Assembly (NCBI GenBank): GCA_964291395.2
Contig: OZ219858.1
Coordinates: forward strand, 768,001-832,000
DNA from: Alphaproteobacteria bacterium
GTDB lineage: Bacteria > Pseudomonadota > Alphaproteobacteria > UBA2966
Length of the DNA stretch: 64,000 nucleotides
Direction of reading: 5' to 3'
Notes under the pieces: generated by a model
The model's database searches: none
What the model was told of the DNA's origin: nothing
What the model saw: the letters and a program-made list of their open reading frames with translations, nothing else
Program-made: the position numbers and the translations under genes
Part shown: one piece after another, positions 4,176 to 49,229 of the stretch
Layout: the number at the start of each line of letters is the position of its first letter
Numbering within the stretch: the first letter of the stretch is position 1

Positions 4176-5086
4176 TCCGTATCGGGCTCGCCGACGCCGG
4201 GTCGGATCAGGAGCACCGGGATTTCCAAACCTTCCACGACATTGTCCGTGGACTTGCCCCGAAGCAGCGGACTCTCGCAGCCGAGAACGAACAATTCGCC
4301 GTGCTCCGCGTGTACGACCGTCGCAAGGCGGGCGGCTTCACGCCGACCGAGCCGGCGGAAGCGGGGTTGCAGCCCGAAGGCCGCCAACAGAGCATCAGCC
4401 TCTTCCTCCAGCCTCGGGGCGGTCCGCTTCGAGTCCGGGATGAAAACGGTGATCGGGTGTCTCTCGCTCAAGGCGAGCCGGGCGGCGAGGCGAAGCCCGC
4501 GGTCCCCGGTCGACGTGTCGTCGTAAGCCACCAGAATGGCGCCGGGCGGCGAATATGCCGCGGCGACAAAACGGTGGTGCGCGATAAGTACCGCACTCGG
4601 TGATCGGGCGCTCAAAGTCCGTGCCGTCTCGCCGAGCTTGACGCGTTGCGGGTACGCCCGGTCCGACTTGCCGACGATGACGATGTCGGCCTCGGAGGCG
4701 GCTGCAAGGATCTCGCTCGCCATGGCTCCCCGAGCAGTTCGAAATGACCAGCGGACGGAGAACCGCTCTGCGTTCATGGCGAGCATATCCCGCGCCACGC
4801 GCGCCTGACGCCGCAACTCGCGTTCCATCGACGAGAGATCCAGACCCTGCCCCGACGTCGTGGCAACGCTTACCACGCGGGTGCACGGGAGGCCCGCCAT
4901 GCGCAACAGGTTGATGTCCTCGACGAACAACCCTTCGATCTCGGCGCGCAGCTTGGCGGCGAGCCGGGTCGCGAGGTCCAGGGAGGTCAAGCTGTCCTCG
5001 GTCGCATCGAGGGCGACCAAAACACGGTAGACCTCCGGCTCCTGCGGTTCGGGCAGTCCGGTGGCCCGTGTCTGTTCCGGAGTCAT
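4157..5086 (-). CDS. Tandem universal stress protein
   Basis: RVLVALDA...ADIVIVG...LGETAR and second ILVAYD...IPVLLIR USP-like halves. Confidence 0.75.
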   Translation of the reverse strand: MTPEQTRATGLPEPQEPEVYRVLVALDATEDSLTSLDLATRLAAKLRAEIEGLFVEDINLLRMAGLPCTRVVSVATTSGQGLDLSSMERELRRQARVARDMLAMNAERFSVRWSFRTARGAMASEILAAASEADIVIVGKSDRAYPQRVKLGETARTLSARSPSAVLIAHHRFVAAAYSPPGAILVAYDDTSTGDRGLRLAARLALSERHPITVFIPDSKRTAPRLEEEADALLAAFGLQPRFRRLGRREAARLATVVHAEHGELFVLGCESPLLRGKSTDNVVEGLEIPVLLIRPGVGEPDTDQTAKG

Positions 5087-7682: not shown

Positions 7683-8093
7683 TCAGCCCTCGCGTTCGAT
7701 CGCCTCCATGTCCGCGTCCGACAGCCCGAAATGGTGACCGATTTCGTGAACCAGTACGTTGCGCACGATCGCCGCGAGGGATTCGCCTGTCTCGCACCAA
7801 TAATCGAGGATGGGGCGGCGGTAGAGAAATATGATGTCGACGTCGGTGGCAGTGTCGAGAACGCTTCGCTGATCGAGACTTACGCCACGGTAGAGACCGA
7901 GCAGGTCGAACTCGTTGTCGACGCCCAGCTCTCTCATCGTTTCCGAATCGGGAAACTCCACGACCTGGATGACGACATCGCTCGTATATGCGCGAAAACG
8001 TTCGGGAAGCGACTCGTAACCCGCGGTGGCCAACGATTCGATGTCCGCCGCGCTGGGCGCCGCGCCGACGGGGGGGACGCCACCCTGCTTCAT
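7683..8093 (-). CDS. Zincin-like metallopeptidase family protein
   Basis: LLGLYRG, FLYRRPI, HEIGHHFG motif. Confidence 0.85.
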   Translation of the reverse strand: MKQGGVPPVGAAPSAADIESLATAGYESLPERFRAYTSDVVIQVVEFPDSETMRELGVDNEFDLLGLYRGVSLDQRSVLDTATDVDIIFLYRRPILDYWCETGESLAAIVRNVLVHEIGHHFGLSDADMEAIEREG

Positions 8094-8130
8094 TCGCCGA
8101 TACGTCACGCACGAGGCGGCGCGGAACGCG

Positions 8131-8895
8131 CTACCTCGGCGCCATGCGCAGCGCCCCGTCGAGCCGAACGACTTCGCCGTTGAGCATCCGGTTCTCGCAG
8201 ATGTAGAGGACCATCGATGCGTACTCGTCCGCGTCGCCGAGCCGGGACGGGAACGGGACGCTCTCACCAAGCGCCTTCTGCGCTTCTTCCGGCAACGAGA
8301 ACATCAGCGGCGTCGCGAACAGCCCCGGGGCGATGGTCATGACCCGGACGCCTCGCGACGCGAACTCTCGCGCGAGCGGAAGGGTGAGCGAGGCGATGCC
8401 GCCTTTGGACGCCGCATAGGCCGGTTGCCCGATCTGGCCGTCGTAGGCCGCCACCGAAGAGGTGTTGACGATGACCCCGCGCTCGCCGTCGTCGTTGACG
8501 GGGTCCTGCTCGAGCATGTCGGCGGCAGCGAGTCGAGCGCAGTTGAACGTCCCGATCAGGTTGATCTCGATGATCTTGCGGAAATCGTCGAGCGGCAGAG
8601 GCCCGCGGCGGCTGACGGCGCGGCCGGGCGGGCCGATGCCGGCACAATTGACGAGGACCCGGGCGGCACCGTGCGCTTCCCGCGCGGACGCGATGGCCCC
8701 TTGCGCCGCCTCGTCGCCGGTGACGTCGCATTCGAGGCCCAGCCCACCGATCTCGGAGGCTACCGACCGGGCGGCCTCGGCGTTGACGTCGAGGATCGCG
8801 ACCTTGGCGCCGGCCGCGGCGAGCGCGCGGGCCGTCGCGGCGCCGAGGCCCGATGCGCCGCCGGTCACGATGGCAGCAGTTCCCTTGAGTTCCAC
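8131..8895 (-). CDS. SDR, 3-hydroxyacyl-CoA dehydrogenase type-2 (HSD10-like)
   Basis: TGGASGLG, NCAGIG, YAASKGG, LNGEVVRLDGALRM. Confidence 0.9.
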   Translation of the reverse strand: MELKGTAAIVTGGASGLGAATARALAAAGAKVAILDVNAEAARSVASEIGGLGLECDVTGDEAAQGAIASAREAHGAARVLVNCAGIGPPGRAVSRRGPLPLDDFRKIIEINLIGTFNCARLAAADMLEQDPVNDDGERGVIVNTSSVAAYDGQIGQPAYAASKGGIASLTLPLAREFASRGVRVMTIAPGLFATPLMFSLPEEAQKALGESVPFPSRLGDADEYASMVLYICENRMLNGEVVRLDGALRMAPR

Positions 8896-9015
8896 GGATC
8901 CTCCCCTTTGTCCCCGACCGGCGTTGTTTAACGGGGTTCTGGTTTAGCAGATCGGATTCGGATGCGCGACCGGGAGTCCGTTGCGAGTCGCGCCGCCCCT
9001 TCCTATATGCGAAGG

Positions 9016-9408
9016 ATGTCGGATTCCGATCATGGGGCTGGTTCGGGCACCGGGCCGAAGGACGACGCGGACGTCGTCCTCAAGGGGTTCTGGAACAAGG
9101 TCCGGCGTACACTGGGGCGCGTGCCCTTCCTGGACGAAGCCGTCGCCGCCTATTACTGCGCCACGGATCCCAAGACCCCGCGCCGCGTTCAGGCGATATT
9201 GCTGGGGGCACTCGCGTACTTCGTGGTTCCCGCTGACATGATTCCCGACTTCATCGCCGGTCTCGGTTTCACCGACGATGCGGCGGTCCTGGCTGCGGTC
9301 ATCGGTACCGTGCGTCGCCACATCACGGACGATCATCGGGCGGGCGCCCGCGCGGTCCTCGACCGCTTCGCCAATACCGGCGGCTCCGAGACCACGGACG
9401 ACGGCTAG
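9016..9408 (+). CDS. YkvA/DUF1232 family membrane protein
   Basis: DPKTP...ALAYFVVPADMIPDFIAGLGFTDDA. Confidence 0.85.
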   Translation: MSDSDHGAGSGTGPKDDADVVLKGFWNKVRRTLGRVPFLDEAVAAYYCATDPKTPRRVQAILLGALAYFVVPADMIPDFIAGLGFTDDAAVLAAVIGTVRRHITDDHRAGARAVLDRFANTGGSETTDDG

Positions 9409-10352
9409 GACCGTTCCCCTGACGGCTCGTCATGCCGGACCCGTGGGCGCCTCGCCGCCGCGGCGCGCTCGATCTGCGCCTCGCGGCGGGTAATGTAGAA
9501 AGTGCTGGAAAAGATCACCGCGGCACCGACCCAGGTCCAGATGTCGGGCACCTCGCTGAAGGCGATGTAACCGATCAGCGCGGTGAACGGCAGACGCGTG
9601 AAATCGAAGGGCATGATGACGGTGGTCTCGGCGATGGCAAAGGCCTTGGTCATCGCCAGATGGGCGCACGTGCCGGAGACGCCGACGACGACCAGCCACG
9701 TGAATTCCTGGGCGGTGGGCCATTGCCACACGAACAGTGCCGGAATGAGGGCGGCGGGGACCATGAACAGGTTGAGGTAGGCGACGATTGTGGTCGAGGA
9801 CTCCGTACGCGAGAGGATCTTGATGACGATGAAGGCGGCGGCCATGCCGGCGGCCGAGAGAATGACGATCAGCAGGTTCGGGTCGATCTCCGCGAAGCCG
9901 GGGCGCAGGATCAGCAGGGCGCCGGCAAAGCCGAGCAGAGTGGCCGTCCATCGCCGTATGCGTACGACCTCCTTGAGAACGATGACGGCCAGCACGGTGG
10001 TGAACAGCGGAGCCGTGAAGCTCAGCGCCACGGCGTCCGCTACCGGAACCACGGACACGGCGTAAAACCAGGTCACTTGGAATACGAGCGCCATGCAACC
10101 GCGCACGAGCAACAATCCGTAACGGTTCGCCCGGAGGACACCGAGCCCCTGGCGGATGAACAGCGGCGACAACGCGAGAAGTCCGAACAAGTTCCGGAAG
10201 AACACGGTCTCGATCGAGGGGATGGATGCGGAGACCTCGCGGATGCCGCCGACCATGGCCGAAAAGAACGCCGAGGCCACGATCATCAGCAGGGCGCCCT
10301 GCGCCGCGTTGGTCAGCCTTCGCGGGCCGTTTCCCGGTATCCCGCGGGTCAC
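9405..10352 (-). CDS. DMT/EamA family transporter
   Basis: About 10 hydrophobic segments; FFRNL, FTAPLF, KEVVRIRRW, LRPG, PFDFTRL motifs. Confidence 0.88.
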   Translation of the reverse strand: MTRGIPGNGPRRLTNAAQGALLMIVASAFFSAMVGGIREVSASIPSIETVFFRNLFGLLALSPLFIRQGLGVLRANRYGLLLVRGCMALVFQVTWFYAVSVVPVADAVALSFTAPLFTTVLAVIVLKEVVRIRRWTATLLGFAGALLILRPGFAEIDPNLLIVILSAAGMAAAFIVIKILSRTESSTTIVAYLNLFMVPAALIPALFVWQWPTAQEFTWLVVVGVSGTCAHLAMTKAFAIAETTVIMPFDFTRLPFTALIGYIAFSEVPDIWTWVGAAVIFSSTFYITRREAQIERAAAARRPRVRHDEPSGERS

Positions 10353-33538: not shown

Positions 33539-35293
33539 ATGGAAACGCGGCGCCCGCTCCTGAACCTGTTGCTCGCCGGTCCGGCGAATGCCGGGGTCAC
33601 GGCGCTCACGCGCCGTCTCGCCGGCGAGGATGACAGTCCGTTCCCGACCGGGGACAACGACTGCGTCGCGATCGACGCCTCGGCCGACTCCGCCGGGATC
33701 CTGCAACGGGTGATGCGGGAAACCGTCGTCGCGGATGGCCTCGTACTGGTGTGCGACGCTGCCGACCGGCGTTTCGAGCGTTTCGAGAGCGCCGCGCGGC
33801 TGGCCTCGGTGCTGGGCATCGACCAGGTCGTGGTCGCACTCAACAAAGTAGACCGCCTCGCGACCCCGGACGAACTGGACGAGGCGCGGGAGCGCGTCCG
33901 GCGGACGATCGTCCGGACCGGGGTGGAATGCCCGGCGATCGTGCCCCTGTCGGCGCGGACGGGCGGGAACGTCCGGGACTCCGCTGACGGGGTCCTCGGA
34001 AACGACGGCCCCTCGCTCACCGACATCATCAGCGGCTTCGAGGCGCCGCCGACGCCGTCCGACCAGCCGCTGCGCCTCCCCCTGACGGGAACCGCCGACG
34101 ATGGCGGGCCGCGTTTCCACGAAGGCCGGCTGAAGAGCGGCGTGCTCGTGGAAGGGGACCGGGTCATCCTTTCCCCGTCCAACGTGGCGGCGCGCGCCGC
34201 TCGCCTGCGGATCCCGGATGGCGGCCGCGACACCCGGACCGCGCGCGCGGGCGACCGCGTGTCGTTGCTGCTGGATGCCGAAGCGGACGTCGCGCCGGGC
34301 CAGCTTCTCAGCCACGCCGAAAACCCTCCGGTGGAGTCGGACGTGTTTCGCGCCAAGGTTTGGTGGCGGCGGCGTCAGCCGCTGATCCCCGGTTCACGGA
34401 TCGGCGCGGACATCGGAGACCGGGTGGTGGACGCCGAGGTTCAGTCCATAGACCACGTCATCGATCCTTCCGAAATCGCGAACGTGGATGCCGACAGGCT
34501 GTCCCGCGGCCACATCGGCGAAGTCGTGGTGCGGGCCCCGGGGATGCTCGCGCTCGATACGCCGGCAACCTGTCCGGCGAATTCACGAGTCAGGTTCCTG
34601 GACGACGACGGCGTATCGGCCTGGGGCTTCATCGGCATGGAAGGCTACGCCGACCAGCGGAACGTCGTAACGGTCCGGGCGACGAACGTGACGCGGGTGG
34701 CTCACCACGTCTGGACCGACGCGCGCGTCGCAAGGCACAGGCACCGCGGGGGCGTGCTCTGGTTCACCGGCCTCTCCGGCGCCGGCAAGTCCACGCTGGC
34801 CGTCGAGGTCGAACGGTCGCTGTTCGACAAGGGGTACGAGGTCTACGTGCTGGACGGCGACAACGTGCGCCACGGGCTCAACGCGGACCTCGGGTTCTCC
34901 CCCGAGGACCGTTCCGAGAACATCCGACGGGTGGGGGAGGTCGCGGCGCTGTTTTCCCGCGCCGGCATCGTCGCCATCTCGGCGTTCATCTCGCCGTACC
35001 GTTCCGACCGCGCGCGCGCGCGCGCCGCGGCCGGAGACGGCTTCCACGAGATCCACATCAAGGCGCCGCTCGAAGTCTGCGAACGCCGGGATCCCAAGGG
35101 TCTCTATGCGCGGGCGCGAAGCGGCGAGATCAGGGACTTCACGGGAATCTCGGCTCCCTACGAGTCGCCCGAAGCGCCCGACCTCGTCGTCGACACGGCG
35201 GCGAACGACGTCGCGTCTTGCGTCGGACGGGTGGTGGCCTACGTCGAGACCGTCTTGTCGGTGGACGGCGGGCCGGGCGCCCCTAAGCCTTAG
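33539..35293 (+). CDS. cysC: Adenylyl-sulfate kinase fused to degenerate CysN-like GTPase (NodQ/CysNC architecture)
   Basis: C-terminal WFTGLSGAGKST, LDGDNVRHGL, RDPKGLY, FTGISAPYE; N-terminal VVALNKVD, PLSARTG, PLRLP remnants. Confidence 0.85.
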   Translation: METRRPLLNLLLAGPANAGVTALTRRLAGEDDSPFPTGDNDCVAIDASADSAGILQRVMRETVVADGLVLVCDAADRRFERFESAARLASVLGIDQVVVALNKVDRLATPDELDEARERVRRTIVRTGVECPAIVPLSARTGGNVRDSADGVLGNDGPSLTDIISGFEAPPTPSDQPLRLPLTGTADDGGPRFHEGRLKSGVLVEGDRVILSPSNVAARAARLRIPDGGRDTRTARAGDRVSLLLDAEADVAPGQLLSHAENPPVESDVFRAKVWWRRRQPLIPGSRIGADIGDRVVDAEVQSIDHVIDPSEIANVDADRLSRGHIGEVVVRAPGMLALDTPATCPANSRVRFLDDDGVSAWGFIGMEGYADQRNVVTVRATNVTRVAHHVWTDARVARHRHRGGVLWFTGLSGAGKSTLAVEVERSLFDKGYEVYVLDGDNVRHGLNADLGFSPEDRSENIRRVGEVAALFSRAGIVAISAFISPYRSDRARARAAAGDGFHEIHIKAPLEVCERRDPKGLYARARSGEIRDFTGISAPYESPEAPDLVVDTAANDVASCVGRVVAYVETVLSVDGGPGAPKP

Positions 35294-39525: not shown

Positions 39526-39540
39526 TGAGAATTATTCGCA
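39526..39540. promoter_or_regulatory. Fur-like box upstream of hemP
   Basis: TGAGAATTATTCGCA, 7-1-7 near-palindrome in an AT-rich patch. Confidence 0.75.
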
Positions 39541-39623
39541 TTTGCATTTACAATCCAAATCCTTTGCGCTATAGAAGGACGGTGTCGAACGTCGTTCGAG
39601 CTTGAGCGACGGGAGACGCGTCC

Positions 39624-39854
39624 GTGACGAGCGAGGCGGAGGAGATGGACAAATCTCTTCTCGAATCGATGTTCCGCGAACACTGGCGATCCCCTCGGAC
39701 AGAACACGCAACCGTGTCCGAACGGGGCGCCGGGACGCGGGAGATCACCAGCCGGGATCTGCTGGGCGACGGCCGCGAAGTCATCATCCGGCATGGCGCG
39801 GAAGCCTACCGACTCAAGCTGACCAACAGCGGCAAGCTGCTGCTGACGAAATGA
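39624..39854 (+). CDS. hemP: Hemin uptake protein HemP/HmuP
   Basis: ITSRDLL...REVIIRHGAEAYRLKLTNSGKLLLTK signature. Confidence 0.9.
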   Translation: MTSEAEEMDKSLLESMFREHWRSPRTEHATVSERGAGTREITSRDLLGDGREVIIRHGAEAYRLKLTNSGKLLLTK

Positions 39855-39985
39855 ACCGCAGAGAGGTGCGATCTCTCCACCGCCTCCAACGACGCATCGA
39901 ACCAAGCCAGCCAACGGCGCGCGACCGCGACACCAGCCAGCCAGGTTCCCAACCCAATGAGGACCGACAAGGGAGCCAGACCGCA

Positions 39986-40801
39986 GTGTCACGCCACAAC
40001 ACCGATCACTACCACACACCGAACCCGGCCGACGGGTCCGAAGCCGCGTCGAAGGACGCCGGTACGTCCGTCGTCTACGTCCGCCCGAAGGACGTTCACC
40101 TGACCCTCGCCGACCTGACGGAAGCGGAGAGCCTCGTCCTGTGGGCCATCAGGACCTGGGTTCGAGGTTTCATGCGGGATATTCCCGTTGCCAAGAGCAT
40201 CGTCAACGGATTGCGCCGCGCGCACGCCGAGAAGATCTTTATGGAACTCGACGGACTCATGTCGCTCTTCGGACGCAACGCGCGACGGCGTCTCGACGTT
40301 CGGTGCCCCGCGTGCGGCTCTCTGAGCCCTGACGAGTACGGCTTTCTGCTGCTCATCGGAGCGGCCCAAGCCGGGCTGAAGGACCTGGTCCAAGCAGTCG
40401 CACGGGAAGGGCTGGAACCTCCGGCTCCGTCATATGGTGCCCTACAGGCCGATCGACTGGCGGCGAATCTGCGCGCCGGTGGGATTGAGCTGCCGCTGCG
40501 GACTCCCAAGGTTGCCGAGAATTCCTCCATGCACGCAATGGCACCCCTTCCGGGCAACCGTACCGTTCGTCTCGGGGTGACAGGACGCGCCGTGGCGGCT
40601 CGGCGGGAGGAGCGGATTGTTTCATGGCCTGCACTCGCCCCGCCACTTGAACTGAACCTGGGAATTGGGGACGGCACCGTGGGCCGAGGGCCTCGGACGC
40701 CGGGTCTCCCGACCGTCGACCTGCGGTGCCCCGTGTCGTTCCTGTGGCGTTGGTGGGCTCAAACCGCCGGCGAGTATCGACCGACGATTTGCCGCTATTG
40801 A
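39986..40801 (+). CDS. Hypothetical protein with CxxC motif downstream of hemP (alternative start 39851)
   Basis: RBS AAGGGAG before GTG 39986; protein-like core LWAIRTW...LDVRCPACGSLSPDE..LL.LIGAAQAG. Confidence 0.6.
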   Translation: MSRHNTDHYHTPNPADGSEAASKDAGTSVVYVRPKDVHLTLADLTEAESLVLWAIRTWVRGFMRDIPVAKSIVNGLRRAHAEKIFMELDGLMSLFGRNARRRLDVRCPACGSLSPDEYGFLLLIGAAQAGLKDLVQAVAREGLEPPAPSYGALQADRLAANLRAGGIELPLRTPKVAENSSMHAMAPLPGNRTVRLGVTGRAVAARREERIVSWPALAPPLELNLGIGDGTVGRGPRTPGLPTVDLRCPVSFLWRWWAQTAGEYRPTICRY

Positions 40802-40835
40802 AAATCATTCGTAAAGGTATTGACAATCATTCTTA
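40799..40835. promoter_or_regulatory. Two Fur-like boxes upstream of bfd
   Basis: TGAAAATCATTCGTA (40799-40813) and TGACAATCATTCTTA (40821-40835), the latter overlapping TTGACA. Confidence 0.7.
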
Positions 40836-40888
40836 TTTGCACCAAAAAGGGGCTGCAACAGGACACCGACAGGACGGCGCCACGAGCC

Positions 40889-41080
40889 ATGTACGTTTGC
40901 ATCTGTAATCGTTACCGGGACAGCGACCTCCGCGACCTCGCGGCTGACGGCGCCCGCTCGGCGGAAGAAGCGTATTCCGTGCTCGGAAACGGTCCGCAGT
41001 GCGGCCGCTGCCTTCAATTCGCCCAGGCCCTGATGGACGAAGTGACGGCGGCGGCGGTCGCGGAATCGACCGTGGGCTGA
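40889..41080 (+). CDS. bfd: Bacterioferritin-associated ferredoxin
   Basis: MYVCICN...CGRC [2Fe-2S] motif. Confidence 0.9.
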   Translation: MYVCICNRYRDSDLRDLAADGARSAEEAYSVLGNGPQCGRCLQFAQALMDEVTAAAVAESTVG

Positions 41081-41281
41081 CGAGTTCGGGACGGGAAATC
41101 CCGGCGATGTTCTGTTGGCCCCGACTTCGTTCAAAAAACCTTCTGGCGGCCGCGCGCTATGTCTCGGGCGCGCTGTCGGCGGGCCAACCGCGCCCCCGGG
41201 ACCCGCAAGCGGGTTTGGCGGGATCGGCCGGCATGAAAATCGAGGACCCGGGCTCCGGGGTGACGGGACGGGTCCGGCCGG

Positions 41282-41752
41282 TCACTCGCCGCTCTGAAAC
41301 TGAACAAAGTTCTCCAGACCCATTGTATCTATGAGCCCGAGCTGGGTTTCCAGCCAGTCGACGTGCTCCTCTTCCCCTTCCAGAATGTCCTCGAGCAGTT
41401 CGCGGGTCACGTAGTCCGACTGCTGCTCGGAGCATGCAATGGCCTCCCGAACCAGCGGGATCGCCTCGTGTTCCAGCCTGAGATCGCAGTCCAGAACCTC
41501 CTTCACGGTTTCTCCGATCAGGAGCTTGTTGAGGTCCTGGAGGTTCGGCAGACCCTCGAGAAACAGAATCCGCTCGACCAACCTGTCCGCGTGCTTCATC
41601 TCGTCCACCGATTCCTCGTACTCGTGTTTGGCCAGACGAGACACACCCCAATTCTTCAACATGCGTGAATGCAGGAAGTATTGATTGATCGCCGTCAACT
41701 CGTTCCTCAGGACACGATTGAGGAAATCGACAACCTTCGCGTCACCTTGCAC
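41282..41752 (-). CDS. bfr: Bacterioferritin
   Basis: ELTAINQYFLH, DEMKHAD, LEGLPNLQ, EEEHVDWLE; RBS AAGGAG before GTG. Confidence 0.95.
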   Translation of the reverse strand: MQGDAKVVDFLNRVLRNELTAINQYFLHSRMLKNWGVSRLAKHEYEESVDEMKHADRLVERILFLEGLPNLQDLNKLLIGETVKEVLDCDLRLEHEAIPLVREAIACSEQQSDYVTRELLEDILEGEEEHVDWLETQLGLIDTMGLENFVQFQSGE

Positions 41753-41863
41753 GGCACTCTCCTTCGCTGATCGATCGGATACCACCGGTGCGGATCCGAT
41801 GATTCCGCATCATGTCGCAAGAACTTTCGCCTGACCACGGCAACGACTCGCTTGACGCAATTC

Positions 41864-41878
41864 TGCGATTGATTATCA
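41864..41878. promoter_or_regulatory. Fur-like box in the bfr/DUF4856 divergent region
   Basis: TGCGATTGATTATCA, inside a TTGACG-N16-TATCAT plus-strand promoter-like element. Confidence 0.6.
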
Positions 41879-42016
41879 TTATTATATAATCGCGGGTACT
41901 CACACACCGTCGGCCGGGCGCCCGACCCGTTCCTGACGCGCCTCAGATGGGATAGCCACCCCACACGGGCGCCGAATCATACAAGAGATCCAAGGGCTTG
42001 GAATATGTATTGCGAG

Positions 42017-42062
42017 TGTGAATTATTCGCATTGATCAATGTGCAATTGTGAATTATTCTCA
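42017..42062. promoter_or_regulatory. Two Fur-like boxes upstream of the DUF4856 gene
   Basis: TGTGAATTATTCGCA (42017-42031) and TGTGAATTATTCTCA (42048-42062). Confidence 0.75.
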
Positions 42063-42099
42063 ATATCATGAATCAGCGACGAACGCGAGGACGAGTCAA

Positions 42100-43524
42100 A
42101 TGAGCAAAGCAATCACCGCGGGGACCGCGGCGGTCACTTTGGCGCTGCTTTCCGGCGCGGCGCTGGCCGACGACATGGTCTACGCCGGCTTCCCCGTGAC
42201 CGTGAAAGGGTACAGCGGCAGTAAAACGACGTCGGTCTCCTACACCGGGCAGGTCGCCCGTCACGTTCTTCACGATTCGCTGAAGAAACTCGCCGGCTCC
42301 GGCAACGGAAAGCCCAATCCGGAACTGAAGGCCAAGATGATGGCCTACTTCGGCGGGAAGGACGCCGGACGCGAGATCATCGCGCCGGCGACCAAGGGGC
42401 CGTTCGCGATCTCCCAGTCGGCGGTCGACGAGATCAGCAAGGGGAAGAACCTGTCCGGCAAGACGTTCAAGGCCGCCGTCACGGGCATGCCGAACGGCAT
42501 GATCGGCCCGGAGCTGGTCGAATTCTGGATCGACAAGGCGTCGTCCGCCAACAAGGGATTCGACAAGGACAACGGTTACGATTATCCGCAACTGATCTCC
42601 AAGTACGTCATGGGCGCGGTGTTCTACAACCAGGCCGCCGACGGCTATCTGGACGAGTATCTCAGCGCGGACAAAAAGCCCAACGACAAGCCCTACAAGG
42701 ATGGAGCGGCCTACACCGGGAAAGAGCACTCTTGGGACGAGGCCTTCGGCTATTTCGGGACGCCGGCCCACACGCTGAAGCTCACGCCGAAGCAGGTCTA
42801 CGGCATCGCGAAGCGCAAGTCCGAGGCTTTCGCGGACGCCGACTACAACAAGGACGGGAAGGTGGATCTGAGAACCGAAATGACGTTCGGTCCGGCCTAT
42901 TACGCCGCGGGGTTCGACGCCTCCGTCTACGACAAGAGCAACGGAACCAGCTACCTGCACACGATCACGAAGGCCTTCCTCGACGGCCGCAAGCTGCTCA
43001 CGGACGCCAAGGGCGAGAAGCTGACGGACGAACAGCGCGACCAGCTGAAGCGCCATGCTTCGGTCATCACGCGGAATTGGGAGAAGGTCCTGGCCGAGGC
43101 AACCTTCAAGTATGCGGGTTCGGTCTACAAGGACATGGTGAAGCTCCAGACCATCGTGGACTCCGGCGGAGACCCGAGCAAGGCGTTCCGCGCGTACGCG
43201 AAGCACTGGGGAGAGCTCAAGGGCTTCGCCCTCGCGTTGCAGTCCGGCAAGGACAACCTCGGCGAGACGGCGACGAGGCTGAACCGGATGATCGGCGCCG
43301 GCCCGCTGCTGCTCAACGCCAGCCAGGTCGTCGACATCGACAGCCAGGGCAACTACGTTCGCGACCAGGGACCGGACTGGGGCGAGTACATGCTCCACAT
43401 GGCCAAGGTGCAGAAGCTGATGATCGACCAGTTCGGCGTCCAGGCGCGCAACAACGACGTGACGGGAGAGATGGCGGCGTTGGCCGGCCAGCTCGGCGAC
43501 AAGGCGTCCGCCGAAAACGACTAG
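42100..43524 (+). CDS. Secreted DUF4856-like protein (iron-regulated)
   Basis: Signal peptide ending ALA-DD, SVSYTGQ.AR, QLISK..MGAVFYNQ, EHSWDEAFGYFG, KHWGELKGF motifs. Confidence 0.78.
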   Translation: MSKAITAGTAAVTLALLSGAALADDMVYAGFPVTVKGYSGSKTTSVSYTGQVARHVLHDSLKKLAGSGNGKPNPELKAKMMAYFGGKDAGREIIAPATKGPFAISQSAVDEISKGKNLSGKTFKAAVTGMPNGMIGPELVEFWIDKASSANKGFDKDNGYDYPQLISKYVMGAVFYNQAADGYLDEYLSADKKPNDKPYKDGAAYTGKEHSWDEAFGYFGTPAHTLKLTPKQVYGIAKRKSEAFADADYNKDGKVDLRTEMTFGPAYYAAGFDASVYDKSNGTSYLHTITKAFLDGRKLLTDAKGEKLTDEQRDQLKRHASVITRNWEKVLAEATFKYAGSVYKDMVKLQTIVDSGGDPSKAFRAYAKHWGELKGFALALQSGKDNLGETATRLNRMIGAGPLLLNASQVVDIDSQGNYVRDQGPDWGEYMLHMAKVQKLMIDQFGVQARNNDVTGEMAALAGQLGDKASAEND

Positions 43525-43550
43525 GACGGTTCCGGTTTGACCGGAAGCGC

Positions 43551-43678
43551 CAGGGAACAGGTGTCGGACCCGGACGAGCGATAATGCGGGGTCCGACACC
43601 GATCCCTGCACCAGCTTCCCGCCGTAAGAAACCGCGGGCAGGGGCCGGAACGACGGCGTCCCGGCCCCCGTGGTTTTT
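43551..43678 (+). terminator. Two tandem intercistronic hairpins (stabiliser or partial terminator)
   Basis: GGTGTCGGACCC/GGGTCCGACACC 12-bp stem; GGGGCCGG/CCGGCCCC stem followed by GTGGTTTTT. Confidence 0.6.
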
Positions 43679-43696
43679 CCCGGGGATAGGTTGATC

Positions 43697-45712
43697 ATGG
43701 ACGCCCTGTTCGTCGATTACGTCGACCGTCTGGCCGACCAGCTCCTCAACCCGCAGAAGCGGGTTTTCATCGGCTACCTGGCAAGCGCTTTGGTTCTGGC
43801 ACTCGGAGTCCGGGTGTTCGCCGCCAGAACGACGCTCCTTCGAGCGCCGGCCCGGATATTCAGCGCCAGGGTCTGGTGGTCCCGGTCGGCGAAGGCGGAC
43901 TACAAGATCGCCGCCCTCAATCAGGCGATCATGATGGGCGTGGCCCCGCGCCTGATTTCCCAACTGGCGGTGGCCACCCTCCTGTTCGAAGCCATGCACG
44001 TTTGGTTCGGCGGGCGTCCCCTCGTCTGGCTCGAAGTGCCCGGCTGGGCGGTTGCCGGCGTGTTTACCGTCGTGCTTTTCCTCCTCGATGACGCGACCAA
44101 GTATCTGCTCCACCGATGCCTCCACGCATCGCCCGTCCTGTGGTGTTTCCACAAGGTTCACCACACGGCGGAGACGATGACTCCGTTCACGGTGTATCGC
44201 ACCCACCCGGTCGAGGCCGTGCTCTTCGCCTTGCGCGCCACCTTGGTGCAGGCGGTCGCCATGGCGGCGTTCTTCTTCTTTCTGGGCGACCGCGTGGAGC
44301 TGATGACGGTATTCGGAGCCAACGTGATCCTGTTCGTGTTCAACGTCGCCGGATCGAATCTCCGTCACTCCCACGTATGGATCTCCTATGGACGCGTCAT
44401 CGAGCACGTCCTGATCTCGCCGGCACAGCACCAGATCCACCACTCCGTCGATCCGCGGCACCACGATCGGAACTTCGGAACCGTGCTGGCGATTTGGGAT
44501 TGGATGGGGCATAGCCTGTGTCTTGCCGAACGCGGGCATGAAATCCGCTATGGGGTGACGGGCGCCGCGCCCGAGCCTCACGGTTTGAAGGCCGTCTATC
44601 TCGAACCCTTTCGGGAAGCCGTCGCGGGCTTGTCCGGACTACGATGCTGGAGACCTGTCAAGATGTTTTCCTCGCTGAATTCCCGGCCGCTCCGCCGGAG
44701 CGGTATCGCCATCCTCGCCGCCGCGCTGGCAACCGTGCTCGAAGCGGCCGCGTCCGGCGCTTCGTCGCAGGACCTCAACATCTATTCGCACCGCCAACCG
44801 TTCCTGATCAACCCGTTCATCGAGGCGTACGAGGAGCGGACCGATGTGACGATCAACATCGTCTTCGCCTCCAAGGGACTGGCGCAGCGCCTTCAGGCGG
44901 AGGGACCGCGGAGCCCGGCGGACGTCGTGCTGACGGTCGATATCGCCCGTCTCCATACGTACGCCGACAAGGACCTCCTGGCGCCCGTCGAGTCGGCCGT
45001 TCTGACGAAGAACATCCCGCCTCATCTGCGCGATCCCGGCAACCGTTGGTTCGCCTTTTCCAAGCGGGCCCGCGTGATCGTCGTCTCGAAAAAGGCGGAG
45101 GACGGCTTCTCGATCAAGAGCTATGAGGATCTGACGGATCCCAAGTGGAAAGGCCGCATCTGCGCGCGGCCGGGCAGTCACGTGTACAACAGGGCCCTGA
45201 TCGCCTCCTTGATCGAATCCCGGGGCGAGGAAGGGGCACAGGCCTGGGCGCAGGGCCTGTTCGACAACCTGGCGCGACGGCCGCAAGGCAACGACCGGGC
45301 GCAGGTGAAGGCGATCTACGAGGGCGTGTGCGACGTCGCCATCATCAACAACTACTATTACGGAAAACTGAAGCGGTCCGACGTACCCGAACAACGCGAG
45401 TGGGCGGCGGCCGTGCGCCTGATCTTTCCAAATCAGGACGGCCGCGGAACGCATGTCAATATTTCGGGCGGAGGCGTCGCCAAGCATTCCAAGAACAAGG
45501 AACGAGCGGTTCACTTCCTGGAGTTCTTGACATCCGAGACCGCTCAGAAGCTGTATGGCTCCATCAATTACGAGTATCCGGTGAATCCGGCCGTCGAGCC
45601 GTCGGACGAGCTGAAGTCCTGGGGAGCGTTCAAGGAAGATCAGATGCCCATCGCCCGTATCGCCGAATTGGCCCCACAGGCGCAGCGCGTCATCGACCGC
45701 GTGGGATGGTGA
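43697..45712 (+). CDS. Fusion: sterol desaturase/fatty-acid hydroxylase family domain + FutA/FbpA Fe(III)-binding protein
   Basis: His boxes HRCLH, HKVHH, HSH, HQIHH; then a signal-like stretch from Met 44663; then NIYSHRQ, SPADVVLTVD, HVYN, NNYYYG, HVNISG; no stop between domains. Confidence 0.85.
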   Translation: MDALFVDYVDRLADQLLNPQKRVFIGYLASALVLALGVRVFAARTTLLRAPARIFSARVWWSRSAKADYKIAALNQAIMMGVAPRLISQLAVATLLFEAMHVWFGGRPLVWLEVPGWAVAGVFTVVLFLLDDATKYLLHRCLHASPVLWCFHKVHHTAETMTPFTVYRTHPVEAVLFALRATLVQAVAMAAFFFFLGDRVELMTVFGANVILFVFNVAGSNLRHSHVWISYGRVIEHVLISPAQHQIHHSVDPRHHDRNFGTVLAIWDWMGHSLCLAERGHEIRYGVTGAAPEPHGLKAVYLEPFREAVAGLSGLRCWRPVKMFSSLNSRPLRRSGIAILAAALATVLEAAASGASSQDLNIYSHRQPFLINPFIEAYEERTDVTINIVFASKGLAQRLQAEGPRSPADVVLTVDIARLHTYADKDLLAPVESAVLTKNIPPHLRDPGNRWFAFSKRARVIVVSKKAEDGFSIKSYEDLTDPKWKGRICARPGSHVYNRALIASLIESRGEEGAQAWAQGLFDNLARRPQGNDRAQVKAIYEGVCDVAIINNYYYGKLKRSDVPEQREWAAAVRLIFPNQDGRGTHVNISGGGVAKHSKNKERAVHFLEFLTSETAQKLYGSINYEYPVNPAVEPSDELKSWGAFKEDQMPIARIAELAPQAQRVIDRVGW

Positions 45713-47385
45713 GCCAAGCCGCTCTCGGCGGCGCCACGAAGGCCGGAAATCGGGTTACGCCCTGGACCCTCGCGGCGGTCGCCCTCGCGCTCGTATTCTT
45801 CGCGCCGATTCTCTCGGTGTTCGCCGCCGCGACGGGCGATAGCGGCGGGCTGTGGGATCATCTGTTCCGGACCGTGTTCCCGCGCTACGTGGCCAACACG
45901 TTGACCCTGATGGCCGGAGTCGGCTCCGTCAGCCTGTTGTTCGGAGTGGCGGCCGCGTGGGTGGTTCACCGATACGCGTTCCCGGGCAGAGCGATCCTGC
46001 AATGGATGCTGCTGCTGCCCGCCGCGGTCCCGACCTACCTCATCGCCTATACCTACACGGACTTTCTCGAGTATGCCGGGCCCCTGCAACAGGTGCTGCG
46101 CGACATGTTCGGATGGCGAAATGCCCGAGACTACTGGTTCCCGGAAATCCGTTCCATGGGGGGCGCCTCGCTCGTGCTCGGCGCGGTTCTCTATCCCTAC
46201 GTCTACATGATGGCCCGCACGGCATTCCTGTTGACGCCGGCCGGGCTGTTCGAGGTCGGAATGCTCGCCAAGCGAAATCTCTTCTTCAACGTCGCGCTGC
46301 CGCTGGCCCGGCCGGCCATCGTCGCGGGGTTGGCTTTGGTGTTGATGGAGACGATCTCGGAGTTCGGCGCCGTCGAGTACTTTGCCATCGAGACCATCAC
46401 GCTGGGCATCTTCAACGTCTGGCTCGGCATGAACAGCCTGCCCGCGGCCGCCCAAATCGCCTCCGTCTCCACGCTCTTCATCGTCGCCCTCCTGTGCGTC
46501 GAGCTGCTGGCGCGCTCCCGCAGACGGTTTACCAACACCAGCCGGAAGACCATGCCGCTGGCCGCGACCCCAGTGGGCGGATTGAAGGCTCTCGCCTGCG
46601 CCGCCGTGTGCCTGACGCCCGTGGTGGTCGGTTTCGTGATTCCCGCCGGACTCCTGTCGGGCTTCGTCCTTCAGGGACACTCGCTCGAATTCGACAGCGG
46701 CGTGGTGACCGCGTCCCTCAACTCCATCGCCCTTGCCGGGGCCGTGGCGTTCTTCGTCATCGCGTCGGCGGCGTTCATGGGACTCGTCGCCCACTACCAG
46801 GGCGGCGTCCCGCTGAAGCGCCTGACCGCCCTCGCCTCGGTCGGCTACGCATTCCCCGGCACGATCCTCGCCATCGGCGTGATCACGGTGGGCGGAGCGA
46901 TCGACGACGGCATCGGCGCGTTCGTCGAGAACACCCTGGGCCTGTCCTATCAGGGCTGGTTGACCGGGGGCATCGGCCTCGTCGCCATTGCCTGCACCGT
47001 TCGATTTCAGGCCGTCGGCTACGGGGCGATTACGACGGGGCTCCAGCGGCTGCCGCCCAACATGATGGAAGCCAGCCGCTCTCTGGGACACACGTTCGCG
47101 CAGAGCCTGCGCGACGTCATCCTGCCGCTGCTCCGTCTCCCCCTGATCACGGGAGGGTTGCTGGTGTTCGTCGACGTGATGAAAGAGCTGCCCATGACGC
47201 TTCTGCTGCGGCCGTTCAATTACGAGACGCTGGCCACGTACGTGTATCAGTTCGCCAAGGACGAGTTGCTGGAAGAGGCGGCCCTGCCGGCGCTCTTCAT
47301 CGTCATCGTCGGCATCCTGCCGGTCATCGCGATGAACGCCATGCTGCGCAGGATCGCCCGGCAGGACACGTCCGCGCCCCGCTGA
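45706..47385 (+). CDS. fbpB: Fe(III) ABC transporter permease (FutB/FbpB)
   Basis: YWFPEIRS, LYPYVY, LPLARPAI, MEASRSLG, FVDVMKELP.TLLLRPFN.ETLA. Confidence 0.9.
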   Translation: MVSQAALGGATKAGNRVTPWTLAAVALALVFFAPILSVFAAATGDSGGLWDHLFRTVFPRYVANTLTLMAGVGSVSLLFGVAAAWVVHRYAFPGRAILQWMLLLPAAVPTYLIAYTYTDFLEYAGPLQQVLRDMFGWRNARDYWFPEIRSMGGASLVLGAVLYPYVYMMARTAFLLTPAGLFEVGMLAKRNLFFNVALPLARPAIVAGLALVLMETISEFGAVEYFAIETITLGIFNVWLGMNSLPAAAQIASVSTLFIVALLCVELLARSRRRFTNTSRKTMPLAATPVGGLKALACAAVCLTPVVVGFVIPAGLLSGFVLQGHSLEFDSGVVTASLNSIALAGAVAFFVIASAAFMGLVAHYQGGVPLKRLTALASVGYAFPGTILAIGVITVGGAIDDGIGAFVENTLGLSYQGWLTGGIGLVAIACTVRFQAVGYGAITTGLQRLPPNMMEASRSLGHTFAQSLRDVILPLLRLPLITGGLLVFVDVMKELPMTLLLRPFNYETLATYVYQFAKDELLEEAALPALFIVIVGILPVIAMNAMLRRIARQDTSAPR

Positions 47386-48201: not shown

Positions 48202-49032
48202 TCAGACCGGCCGATCACCCGCGACAGTGAACCTGTAGCCGTGCCGCACCTCGGGATGGTAGTCGAACATGGCGTAGTGCTGGGCGCAACGGTTGTCCCA
48301 GAACGCCACTGAATTCGCTCGCCATCTAAAGCGGCAATGGTACTTCGGCTGGCGGATGTGTTCGTAAAGCATCCCGAGGACGGCGTCGCTTTCGGCGGCA
48401 GTCACATCCTTGATGTGTGAGGTGAAGATCTCGTTCACGAACAAGGCCTTGCGCCCGGTCACAGGGTGGGTGCGCACAACCGGATGCTCCGAAACCGGCG
48501 GTGTCTCGTCCCGGAGCTGCGGGCTCTGCTCCTGGCGACCGTCGTAGACCTGTGGCGCGCTGTGCACCGCAGTGAGACCCGAGAGGAACTGTTGCATGGT
48601 GTCCGACAGATCCTCGTGAGCCGCATACATGCTGGCGAAAAGAGTGTCGCCGCCGGTGCTTGGCGCTTCCGTCAGGTAGAGGATGCTGCCCATCGGCGGC
48701 TCAGGGTCGCAGGACACGTCCGAGTGCCAGCCGCCGCTCCCCGCCGCGAATTTGGTCGTCTCGTCGGCGCGGATGATCAGCAGTTCGGGATGCCCCAGGT
48801 CTCCCGACCCGAACATGGGATGGATGTGCAATTCGCCGAACTGCCGTGCGAACACCTTGTGCTGATCGATGGTCATGTGCTGGTCACGGAAGAAGATGAC
48901 CTGATGCTCCATGAGAGCGTCGTGGACCTCCTTGAAGGTCTGGTTACCCAACGGCTTCGATAGGTCGATACCGCCGATCTCGGCACCGATGCGGGGGGTT
49001 ACGGGCTCGACGTGAATCGTCTCATAGGTCAT
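48202..49032 (-). CDS. TauD/TfdA family Fe(II)/2-oxoglutarate dioxygenase
   Basis: WHSD, GGDTLFASM, HPVVRTHPVTGRK, FWDNR..QH. Confidence 0.9.
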   Translation of the reverse strand: MTYETIHVEPVTPRIGAEIGGIDLSKPLGNQTFKEVHDALMEHQVIFFRDQHMTIDQHKVFARQFGELHIHPMFGSGDLGHPELLIIRADETTKFAAGSGGWHSDVSCDPEPPMGSILYLTEAPSTGGDTLFASMYAAHEDLSDTMQQFLSGLTAVHSAPQVYDGRQEQSPQLRDETPPVSEHPVVRTHPVTGRKALFVNEIFTSHIKDVTAAESDAVLGMLYEHIRQPKYHCRFRWRANSVAFWDNRCAQHYAMFDYHPEVRHGYRFTVAGDRPV

Positions 49033-49229
49033 GGCACACCCTTCCGAACGTTCGTTCGCGGCTGAGCGAACTACCCACCCACCGGTACAGCATACTACGC
49101 GGCTTTCGGGCACTGCTCGATAAACGACCGTTTTTTCCAGCACGACGAGAGAGCGCATCCCGGCGATGCTTTCGACCCCCACCTGACAACGATATGCTTG
49201 CGCGGCGCATCGGAAATCGAGAACCTGTC

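Follow-up and report, generated by a model that had tools for sequence, protein, structure and literature searches.

The 64,000-nucleotide stretch analysed here (the window), positions 768,001 to 832,000 of contig OZ219858.1 from an Alphaproteobacteria bacterium of the UBA2966 lineage, carries a gene in which a membrane protein of the FA_hydroxylase/sterol desaturase family runs in frame into an FbpA/FutA-type Fe(III)-binding protein. We think it probable that this gene belongs to an Fe(III) uptake operon under Fur-type iron control, that loss of a stop codon merged a hydroxylase-like gene with fbpA, that a soluble FbpA and a separate membrane protein are still made, and that the hydroxylase-like protein is the dedicated partner of a DUF4856-like protein of the same operon. 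The fusion would then be better read as a gene pair without its stop codon, in effect a polyprotein, than as a new bifunctional protein, because its junction resembles a signal peptide, fused and split states interchange, and sister fusions need to be cut.

The open reading frame (ORF) could start at GTG 43670 or ATG 43697; homologs use ATG 43697, which gives 671 residues. The Pfam family FA_hydroxylase (PF04116) matches residues 125-271 with 76.4 bits (cut-off 31), and four overlapping solute-binding protein families (SBP_bac_6, SBP_bac_8, SBP_bac_1 and SBP_bac_11) lie over residues 370-646, each above its cut-off. A preliminary description of this DNA had reported the fusion in one ORF, the four His-box motifs, HVYN (residues 495-498) and NNYYYG (residues 551-556) in the FbpA half, the linker RPLRRSGIAILAAALATVLEAAASGASS, and the GGAG and ATG within it. 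All of these motifs are in place (Table 1), and the single frame, the two sets of Pfam families, bridging contigs and fused relatives bear out the fusion itself.

The locus stretch is present in 20 sequencing runs from 18 studies, mostly labelled sponge metagenome, and contigs from other public runs cross positions 44600-44680 with neither an indel nor a stop codon. One of the bridging records, X2, has substitutions near the junction at 44591, 44599 and 44682, which in the reading frame are Ala>Thr, silent and Ser>Phe. The metatranscriptome evidence consists of contigs, and their coverage gaps carry no information on transcript ends. It is extremely improbable that the fusion is an artefact of sequencing, of assembly or of gene calling that merged two genes. 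In some relatives a stop does separate the halves, but contigs of several independent runs bridge the junction without an indel, and at least 120 database proteins and 73 of 80 related loci have the same fusion. The stop codon ahead of the internal ATG that would have spoken for two genes is seen in none of these contigs, and other genomes carry the fusion.

Table 1. Coordinates of the fused gene, its parts and the features associated with it (window positions unless a locus is named)
Feature	Position	Strand	Remarks
Promoter-like TTGACG-16-TATCAT	41852-41879	+	-10 overlapped by Fur-box-like 7-1-7 site
Second Fur-box-like match	41864-41878	+	3 mismatches
Fur-box-like 7-1-7 site	41870-41884	+	2 mismatches
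Fur-box-like site	42048..42062	+	3 mismatches; ~40 nt before DUF4856-like start codon
Ferritin-like (bacterioferritin-type) gene	41282..41785	-	divergent from operon; Pfam Ferritin E 1.2e-36
DUF4856-like periplasmic protein, 474 aa	42100..43524	+	ATG 42100 = Met18 of ORF 42049-43524
Structured intergenic spacer, two strong hairpins	43522..43696	+	minimum free energy -99.5 kcal/mol, z -6.0 vs 200 shuffles
Fused gene	43697..45712	+	671 aa + stop; one open frame, stop at 45710-45712
Membrane FA_hydroxylase-family domain, residues 1-320	43697..44656	+	Pfam; AlphaFold2 (AF2) helices
His boxes HRCLH, H139-H143	44111-44125	+	fused gene
His boxes HKVHH, H152-H156	44150-44164	+	fused gene
His box HSH, H224-H226	44366-44374	+	fused gene
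His boxes HQIHH, H245-H249	44429-44443	+	fused gene
Internal Shine-Dalgarno-like GGAG (44649-44652) and ATG (44663-44665, Met323)	44649..44665	+	
Putative retained Sec-type signal peptide of FbpA, residues 323-355	44663..44761	+	AF2 linker low confidence
FbpA/FutA Fe(III)-binding domain, residues 356-671	44762..45709	+	alignments to solved FbpA/FutA
Candidate iron ligands Y497, Y553-Y554, H365	45185-45187, 45353-45358, 44789-44791	+	alignment
FbpB-like permease, two BPD_transp_1 halves	45706..47385	+	ATG overlaps fusion-gene stop (ATGGTGA)
X1, record 1	43500-45228		bridges junction
X2, record 20	44294-44737		bridges junction
X6, record 28, metatranscriptome library	44518-44805		bridges junction
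Four-gene clusters in other genomes	L129:3953-10301, L130:3126-9858, L131:4039-10052		imelysins end SAGDND or GQSDND

The fusion is widespread among relatives. A word-indexed protein search gave 522 matches, and the best 120 of these are 662-686 residues long, 62-98% identical to the query over 99-100% of its length, and all have both Pfam families. Those that have a name are annotated only as 'extracellular solute-binding protein' or as 'iron(III) transport system substrate-binding protein'. In a scan of one genome per species 283 relatives came up, and the best 80 loci were analysed. Their labels are Rhodospirillales (Nisaea, Terasakiella, Defluviicoccus, Magnetovibrio), Hyphomicrobiaceae/Filomicrobium, Sneathiellales, Minwuia, SAR116 and Paracoccaceae, with one metagenome-assembled genome (MAG) labelled Gammaproteobacteria and one labelled Mesoflavibacter; Nisaea denitrificans DSM 18348, N. 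nitritireducens and Terasakiella sp. all carry the fusion. The continuous frame was found in 72 loci by motif search, to which L069 was added. In the other 7 of the 80 (L066, L077, L078, L081, L083, L084 and L085) the halves share one frame, with one or two stop codons between them that lie 2 to 14 codons before the Met of the fbpA signal peptide, a Met that L066 lacks. These split loci include SAR116, Paracoccaceae and Rhodobacterales MAGs and are distant from the window. Two fused loci are damaged elsewhere, L030 (match 5047-7059), whose hydroxylase half has an in-frame stop, and L088 (match 8001-10055), which has a frameshift; these could be decaying copies or sequencing errors.

Within the genus, the fusion is found in three of five other genomes. 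Among 401 evenly sampled Alphaproteobacteria, a hydroxylase ortholog (at least 41% identity) is present in eight: three are fused, four have separate genes in different frames, the hydroxylase gene and then fbpA (with fbpB detected after fbpA in three of the four), and one, G023, has no adjoining fbpA. Given that seven loci have halves in the same frame separated by stops, and four genomes have them in different frames, these comparisons indicate that the fusion arose through stop loss between adjacent genes. Residues 1-330 were also put through an exhaustive HMMER search, which gave 761 cluster representatives at E ≤1e-30, with details taken from the best 150. In a quick maximum-likelihood tree of 132 hydroxylase domains (131 of those 150 plus the window; 19 were dropped for being shorter than 280 residues or lacking the last His box), rooted at the midpoint only, the FbpA-fused state requires five changes, and at least four are forced by well-supported branches. 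On the strength of these state changes and of the survey of split and fused loci, the gene pair is the older arrangement, and the fused state is derived from it, recurrent and reversible.

Conservation along the fused protein is lowest in the linker (residues ~296-358), yet Met323 is at least 90% conserved. A junction Met is kept in 69 of the 73 fused loci, and in 50 of the 73 it is accompanied by a Shine-Dalgarno-like (SD-like) site, defined as at least 4 nt of AGGAGGT at -17 to -4 from the Met, compared with 67 of 550 (12%) at other Met codons of the same ORFs. Different lineages encode these SD-like words through different amino acids (WRP, RR, KG, KD, RG), which argues for selection on the purine-rich word at the RNA rather than the protein level.

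The junction also keeps what appear to be export signals. In the window, the putative FbpA signal peptide has the n-region RPLRR, an uncharged core of 14 residues, and the c-region AAA/S or SGA/S. All 72 fused loci tested have a positive n-region and at least one small-residue (-3/-1) signal-peptidase site no more than 12 residues from LNIY, the conserved beginning of mature FbpA. Uncharged junction runs have a median of 20 residues (range 13-26), close to the median of 19 (range 13-23, n=44) in signal peptides of the DUF4856-like proteins from the same genomes. With these sites and this match in length, the junction looks like an ordinary cleavable signal peptide. Export by the twin-arginine translocation (Tat) pathway was considered, on the basis of LRRSG in the window and of Tat-exported FutA in cyanobacteria, and not adopted; since the twin arginine is not conserved among relatives, Sec export is assumed.

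These features suggest how the gene would work. The operon would comprise, in order, a DUF4856-like periplasmic protein, a membrane di-iron FA_hydroxylase-like protein, FbpA and the FbpB permease, with FbpC unlinked, and the stop codon between the hydroxylase gene and fbpA would have been lost in the lineage of the window. The read-through product would be tolerated because the hydroxylase ends in the cytoplasm and FbpA starts with its own signal peptide. Because the junction keeps a ribosome-binding site, an ATG, a Sec signal peptide and a signal-peptidase I site, the gene would be a polyprotein gene and contain a nested gene. The FbpA precursor would then come from two sources, the internal start and the tail of the full-length protein, and signal peptidase would free mature, soluble FbpA into the periplasm and leave the hydroxylase-like protein in the inner membrane. 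There it would be an obligate partner of the DUF4856-like protein and, more widely, of envelope proteins for iron uptake.

Our main argument for cleavage is an analogy with sister fusions. Among the best 150 of the 761 hydroxylase representatives, 26 exceed 500 residues, and 32 representatives (29 long or extended and three standalone) were scanned with Pfam. Their N-terminal hydroxylase domain (37-47% identity) is followed by a TonB-dependent receptor (TBDR) plug and barrel in six, an imelysin in five, an FbpA-type solute-binding protein in four, a creatininase-family domain in eight, and a di-haem cytochrome c peroxidase, an Acyl_transf_3 domain and an Exo_endo_phos domain in one each; one more has a weak match below significance, and five have nothing further. 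A signal-peptide-like segment precedes each exported passenger, and all five imelysin passengers have a lipobox Cys. The fusions to TonB receptors and lipoproteins must be cut, because an outer-membrane barrel or a lipoprotein would be nonfunctional while joined to a polytopic inner-membrane protein. The tree places all TBDR and imelysin fusions together in a supported clade, with separate clades for the FbpA fusions and for the creatininase fusions. In the creatininase fusions the second domain lies behind a segment resembling a membrane anchor; the eight representatives are P0213, P0215, P0235, P0243-P0245, P0263 and P0266, and one such fusion was confirmed on genomic DNA (L132:6666-8501).

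The preliminary description had proposed that the gene could give both a soluble and a membrane-tethered FutA. If FbpA were permanently tethered, the junction would be an uncleaved sixth transmembrane helix, and a membrane-anchored solute-binding protein would feed FbpB, with the hydroxylase half as anchor, sensor or acceptor. We consider such permanent tethering unlikely, although several observations fit it and weigh at the same time against cleavage and internal initiation. Uncharged junction runs reach 26 residues, and the AF2 model has a helix of 21 residues at 332-352, compatible with a stable membrane anchor. Four of the 73 fused loci lack the junction Met, 23 of the 73 lack an SD-like word by our simple test, and L073 has no ATG, GTG or TTG there at all; in L073 FbpA would therefore come only from the full-length protein. 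The fused state also persists across lineages that are 46-83% identical. Against the tether stand the -3/-1 motif in 72 of 72 loci, the short uncharged core in the window, a junction length that is indistinguishable from that of cleaved signal peptides in the same genomes, at least four interchanges between fused and split states, and the analogous fusions to outer-membrane receptors and lipobox lipoproteins, which cannot stay tethered. The full-length AF2 model (48-sequence alignment; pLDDT 86.6, pTM 0.52) has a linker with pLDDT below 50 at 317-333 and 351-356, and confident packing of the hydroxylase half against the FbpA half was not seen in it. Thus the separate FbpA precursor of the earlier proposal gains from the Met and SD-like site kept across diverged linkers. 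Its functionally tethered FutA is favoured by nothing: the junction resembles a signal peptide, the two states interchange and the sister fusions need cutting.

The FbpA half itself is readily placed. Against solved structures, it matches Mannheimia haemolytica FbpA (1q35) at E 1.4e-88 over residues 3-314 of 316, Trichodesmium FutA/IdiA (6g7n) at E 9.5e-85 and Synechocystis FutA1 (2pt1) at 1.1e-83, and 1y4t, 1y9u and Synechocystis FutA2 (2voz) at E ≤1e-72. Iron in Trichodesmium Tery_3377 is bound by Tyr-144/200/201, according to the published account (PMC6254336). These residues align with Y497, Y553 and Y554 of the fused protein; in an alignment of 48 sequences no change is seen at Y553 or Y554, and conservation of Y497 is at least 90%. 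By these alignments, the C-terminal half is a genuine and complete FbpA/FutA-type protein, and Fe(III) binding is predicted.

The hydroxylase half has all of its core motifs. In 48 sequences with identity as low as 32%, no variation is seen at H139, H143, H152, H155, H156, H224, H245, H248 or H249. Relative to the FA_hydroxylase family, this half has about 115 extra N-terminal residues with one more predicted helix. A sequence search of the PDB found no solved relative, and a search of the Atlas with the N-terminal half gave 'sterol desaturase family protein' only. Because of the AF2 helices and the signal peptide that follows the domain in each fused passenger, we infer an N-out topology with five helices and the His boxes on the cytoplasmic face. 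The coherent topology noted in the preliminary description agrees with this, as every fused passenger comes after the hydroxylase domain, behind a signal-peptide-like segment with a positive n-region.

The most consistent companion of this domain is the DUF4856-like protein, whose conserved presence upstream the preliminary description does not mention. It starts with the signal peptide MSKAITAGTAAVTLALLSGAALA and matches DUF4856 (PF16148) with 42.1 bits (cut-off 22.3), as do 45 of 45 homologs. In the 401 sampled genomes the DUF4856 profile matches eight, the same eight that have the hydroxylase ortholog, each time with the two genes side by side. Met18 of its ORF is nearly invariant among homologs, and E489, N490 and D491 are at least 90% conserved. 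The protein ends in AEND; the last three residues are END in 42 of 45 homologs, and the residue before them is A, S or V. Its AF2 model is confident (pLDDT 89, pTM 0.88). A sequence search of the PDB with this protein gave no meaningful match, Foldseek gave none against the PDB at E ≤1e-3, and VIA-align found catenin/vinculin helical bundles best (Z 8.3), with the imelysin 3n8u at rank 32 (Z 5.8), all generic helical bundles. An imelysin identity, suggested by the motif KEHSWDE, was not adopted, as hhalign gave it a probability of 0.2%. A lead to algal Fea1 ('low iron-inducible periplasmic protein'), at rank 19 with a score of 0.84 in a protein-language-model atlas, is no more than a lead; Pfam gave no such match in 45 members at E ≤1. 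Two further features of these proteins are an invariant KEHxWDE motif and an EF-hand-like DxNxDGxxD loop (ADYNKDGKVD, residues 259-274 of ORF 42049), with weak EF-hand_5 Pfam matches in 18 of 45 homologs.

Structure prediction supports binding of the DUF4856-like protein to the hydroxylase domain. For hydroxylase residues 1-320 with the mature DUF4856-like protein, the median ipSAE of three runs is 0.66, and the best of three controls reaches 0.00. That mark was reached by 58 of 80 solved complexes and by 2 of 110 mismatched pairs, counts that are rough since the alignments were our own. Between the runs at least 64% of contacts agree, and the pLDDT of the partner is at least 90. Most of the listed contacts are opposite the His boxes (hydroxylase residues 15, 20-23, 88-112 and 185-207), and this predicted docking on the periplasmic face fits both a periplasmic partner and the N-out five-helix topology. 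The interface also lists the tail of the partner (residues 487-491) and H139, H155, H224 and H245, and the last helix of the partner lies between transmembrane helices in the model.

It could be argued that the hydroxylase half is an ordinary lipid hydroxylase or desaturase, acting for instance on ornithine lipids, which is merely co-transcribed with the iron genes, perhaps for its own iron need, and that the fusion is a neutral accident. The Pfam match with all His boxes would agree with this, as would a weak NCBIfam match to OlsE, the ornithine-lipid hydroxylase (33 bits, cut-off 475), the occurrence of paralogs in non-iron contexts and their fusions to acyltransferase or phosphatase-type domains, and the recurrence of fusion and fission, which suggests that the fusion is near neutral. 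We nevertheless judge it quite improbable in view of the strict two-way co-occurrence and adjacency with the DUF4856-like gene (eight of eight in the 401 genomes), the recurring link to TBDR, imelysin, cytochrome c peroxidase and FbpA, whether by fusion or as neighbours, and the complex prediction with a periplasmic partner, which passes. In addition, an iron-needing enzyme behind Fur-box-like sites would presumably be induced just when iron is scarce. The suggestion in the preliminary description that the hydroxylase domain acts in iron uptake rather than on lipids thus finds strong contextual support in the operon, the DUF4856 co-occurrence and the fusions to iron proteins.

This link to iron is limited to subclades and does not extend to the whole family, because paralogs sit in non-iron contexts; inspection of the neighbourhoods of paralogous hydroxylases found no iron genes. 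Secreted PA14-domain proteins are found directly before paralogous hydroxylases of 35-39% identity (L090:7014-7604 and L091:7028-7630 on the minus strand, L092:5098-5817 and L093:5139-5771), three of them directly adjoining, and they share a conserved C-terminus, VP(A/K)E(V/A)(Y/F)G(H/Y). The hydroxylase family may in general have an exported partner encoded upstream. The genome of the window also has a second, shorter FA_hydroxylase gene of 309 aa (G000:C3:215703-216110; L094:5653-6579), which adjoins dehydrogenase, hydrolase and Fic genes and is unrelated to iron genes.

A bolder idea, which we regard as doubtful, is that the hydroxylase works on or through the C-terminal tail of its exported partner and not on lipids. 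It comes from the tails themselves and from the presence of both tail and His boxes in the modelled interface. In three other Pseudomonadota genomes there is a four-gene cluster of DUF4856, imelysin, TonB-dependent receptor and, last, hydroxylase. Of eight imelysins that are fused to sister hydroxylases or adjoin them, seven have GD(N/T/Q)D or SDND at the C-terminus, and DUF4856 proteins in clusters that contain an imelysin end differently from END. In one variant, a di-iron centre may hydroxylate Asp or Asn of the tail and so create a beta-hydroxy-aspartate-type Fe(III) ligand on the protein, a ligand chemistry that marine siderophores use. In the other, the tail and the His cluster may form a path that passes iron or electrons across the inner membrane. 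If such a path exists, the hydroxylase fold would be the inner-membrane component of DUF4856/imelysin/TonB-receptor uptake systems.

Synteny and upstream sequences agree with an iron-regulated uptake operon. Neighbour counts cover the 62 of 73 related loci whose fusion gene was detected by a simple gene picker. The DUF4856-like gene is at -1 in 49 of 58 loci, and in six more it is masked by an antisense shadow ORF, as it is in the window; an FbpB homolog is at +1 in 47 of 60, and an ABC ATPase gene is nearby in 22 related loci. Other genes that come up repeatedly near the fusion encode ferritin (10 loci), Fur (6), imelysin (4) and di-haem oxidoreductase (4). The Fur-box-like 7-1-7 pattern TGATAATNATTATCA, allowing up to three mismatches, has five matches in the window, all of them within 39526-42062, with 0.18 expected by chance. 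This suggests that 39526-42062 may be a small iron-regulated island that includes the ferritin-like gene. Fur-box-like matches also precede ORFs at 39602-40801 and near 40821. In the spacer that separates the DUF4856-like gene from the fusion gene, the second hairpin is followed by GUGGUUUUU, which resembles an attenuator or terminator and lies directly before the fusion gene; the structured spacer may set a high ratio of periplasmic to membrane protein.

Beyond the junction variants described above, a number of points weigh against the explanation that we prefer, a Fur-controlled operon with a cleaved fusion and a dedicated DUF4856-like partner. Both cleavage and internal initiation are readings of the sequence. 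The loci surveyed are related by descent, and their counts overstate the independent support. No ABC ATPase gene was found in the operon of the window; the best FbpC-like gene is on another contig, at 53% identity. The 7-1-7 consensus comes from other bacteria, and the canonical 19-bp Fur box was not found at up to three mismatches. The complex was modelled without a membrane, and the part of its interface at the cytoplasm-facing His boxes is hard to reconcile with a periplasmic partner. Lastly, the contexts of hydroxylase paralogs below 40% identity are not iron-related: PA14-domain proteins adjoin them, or they are fused to creatininase.

Several known systems resemble parts of the locus. 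FbpABC and FutABC importers share the full-length FbpA/FutA protein (E 1e-72 to 1e-88) with its three aligned iron tyrosines, and the FbpB-type double permease that follows with overlapping start and stop codons. Unlike them, the window has no stop-delimited fbpA gene of its own, FbpA being encoded behind a membrane hydroxylase-like domain, and the operon starts with a DUF4856-like protein and has no linked ATPase gene. The FA_hydroxylase/sterol desaturase superfamily includes yeast Scs7p. The window protein is like its members in Pfam score, His-box pattern and predicted helices that place the boxes on one face of the membrane, but it is obligately paired with an exported partner, fused to an iron-uptake protein, and without lipid-metabolism neighbours.

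A parallel for the proposed processing is FbcH, the cytochrome b-c1 polyprotein of Bradyrhizobium, in which one gene yields two proteins after signal-peptidase cleavage, as experiments reportedly showed. In both, an exported protein with an internal signal peptide comes in frame after a polytopic inner-membrane protein. In the window, however, the cleavage is inferred, an internal ribosome-binding site is kept, and the halves are not known subunits of one complex. EfeU is the inner-membrane component of EfeUOB. In the DUF4856-imelysin-TBDR-hydroxylase clusters the hydroxylase relative is the only inner-membrane component and so has an EfeU-like position; the operon of the window differs in having neither imelysin nor TBDR. 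As for export, the Trichodesmium paper (PMC6254336) describes a Tat signal on FutA, in contrast to the Sec export that we infer for the FbpA of the window.

In the open-access literature, supplements excluded, we found nothing on DUF4856 and nothing that links the hydroxylase/sterol desaturase family to imelysin, TonB receptors, FbpA or FutA. A Caulobacter paper on sterol desaturase, TonB-dependent and Fur topics concerns an unrelated cold-induced gene (PMC8552747). Both halves of the fused protein belong to known families; the mechanism inside the system is possibly new, and the locus suggests that bacterial iron uptake has a hydroxylase-like partner not yet described.

A main route by which marine bacteria obtain iron is the import of inorganic Fe(III) through FbpA/FutA-type systems. 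From the perspective of iron acquisition, it is of interest that in a sizeable group, which includes Rhodospirillales such as Nisaea, Terasakiella, Defluviicoccus and Magnetovibrio, along with Hyphomicrobiaceae, SAR116 and sponge symbionts, the Fe(III) system has two additional, strictly coupled and uncharacterised components, the DUF4856-like protein and the membrane di-iron hydroxylase-like protein. DUF4856 and a branch of the 'sterol desaturase family' would thereby gain a functional context in envelope iron acquisition. The locus also seems to offer a natural example of a nested start and an internal signal peptide kept after stop-codon loss. For annotation, the consequence is that fused proteins now named 'extracellular solute-binding protein' alone carry a second domain.

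Other genes near the fusion were noted in passing. Two families of small proteins (about 170-230 aa) with no Pfam match are near the fusion operon in eight to nine loci each (for example, window 39602-40801, L034:15461-15982, L036:3358-3855 and L033:4568-5119). Farther out, the window is flanked by a CysN/CysC-type fusion of a GTPase and an adenosine 5'-phosphosulfate kinase (33539-35293) and by a TauD-family dioxygenase (48202-49182, minus strand), both sulfur-metabolism genes outside the operon.

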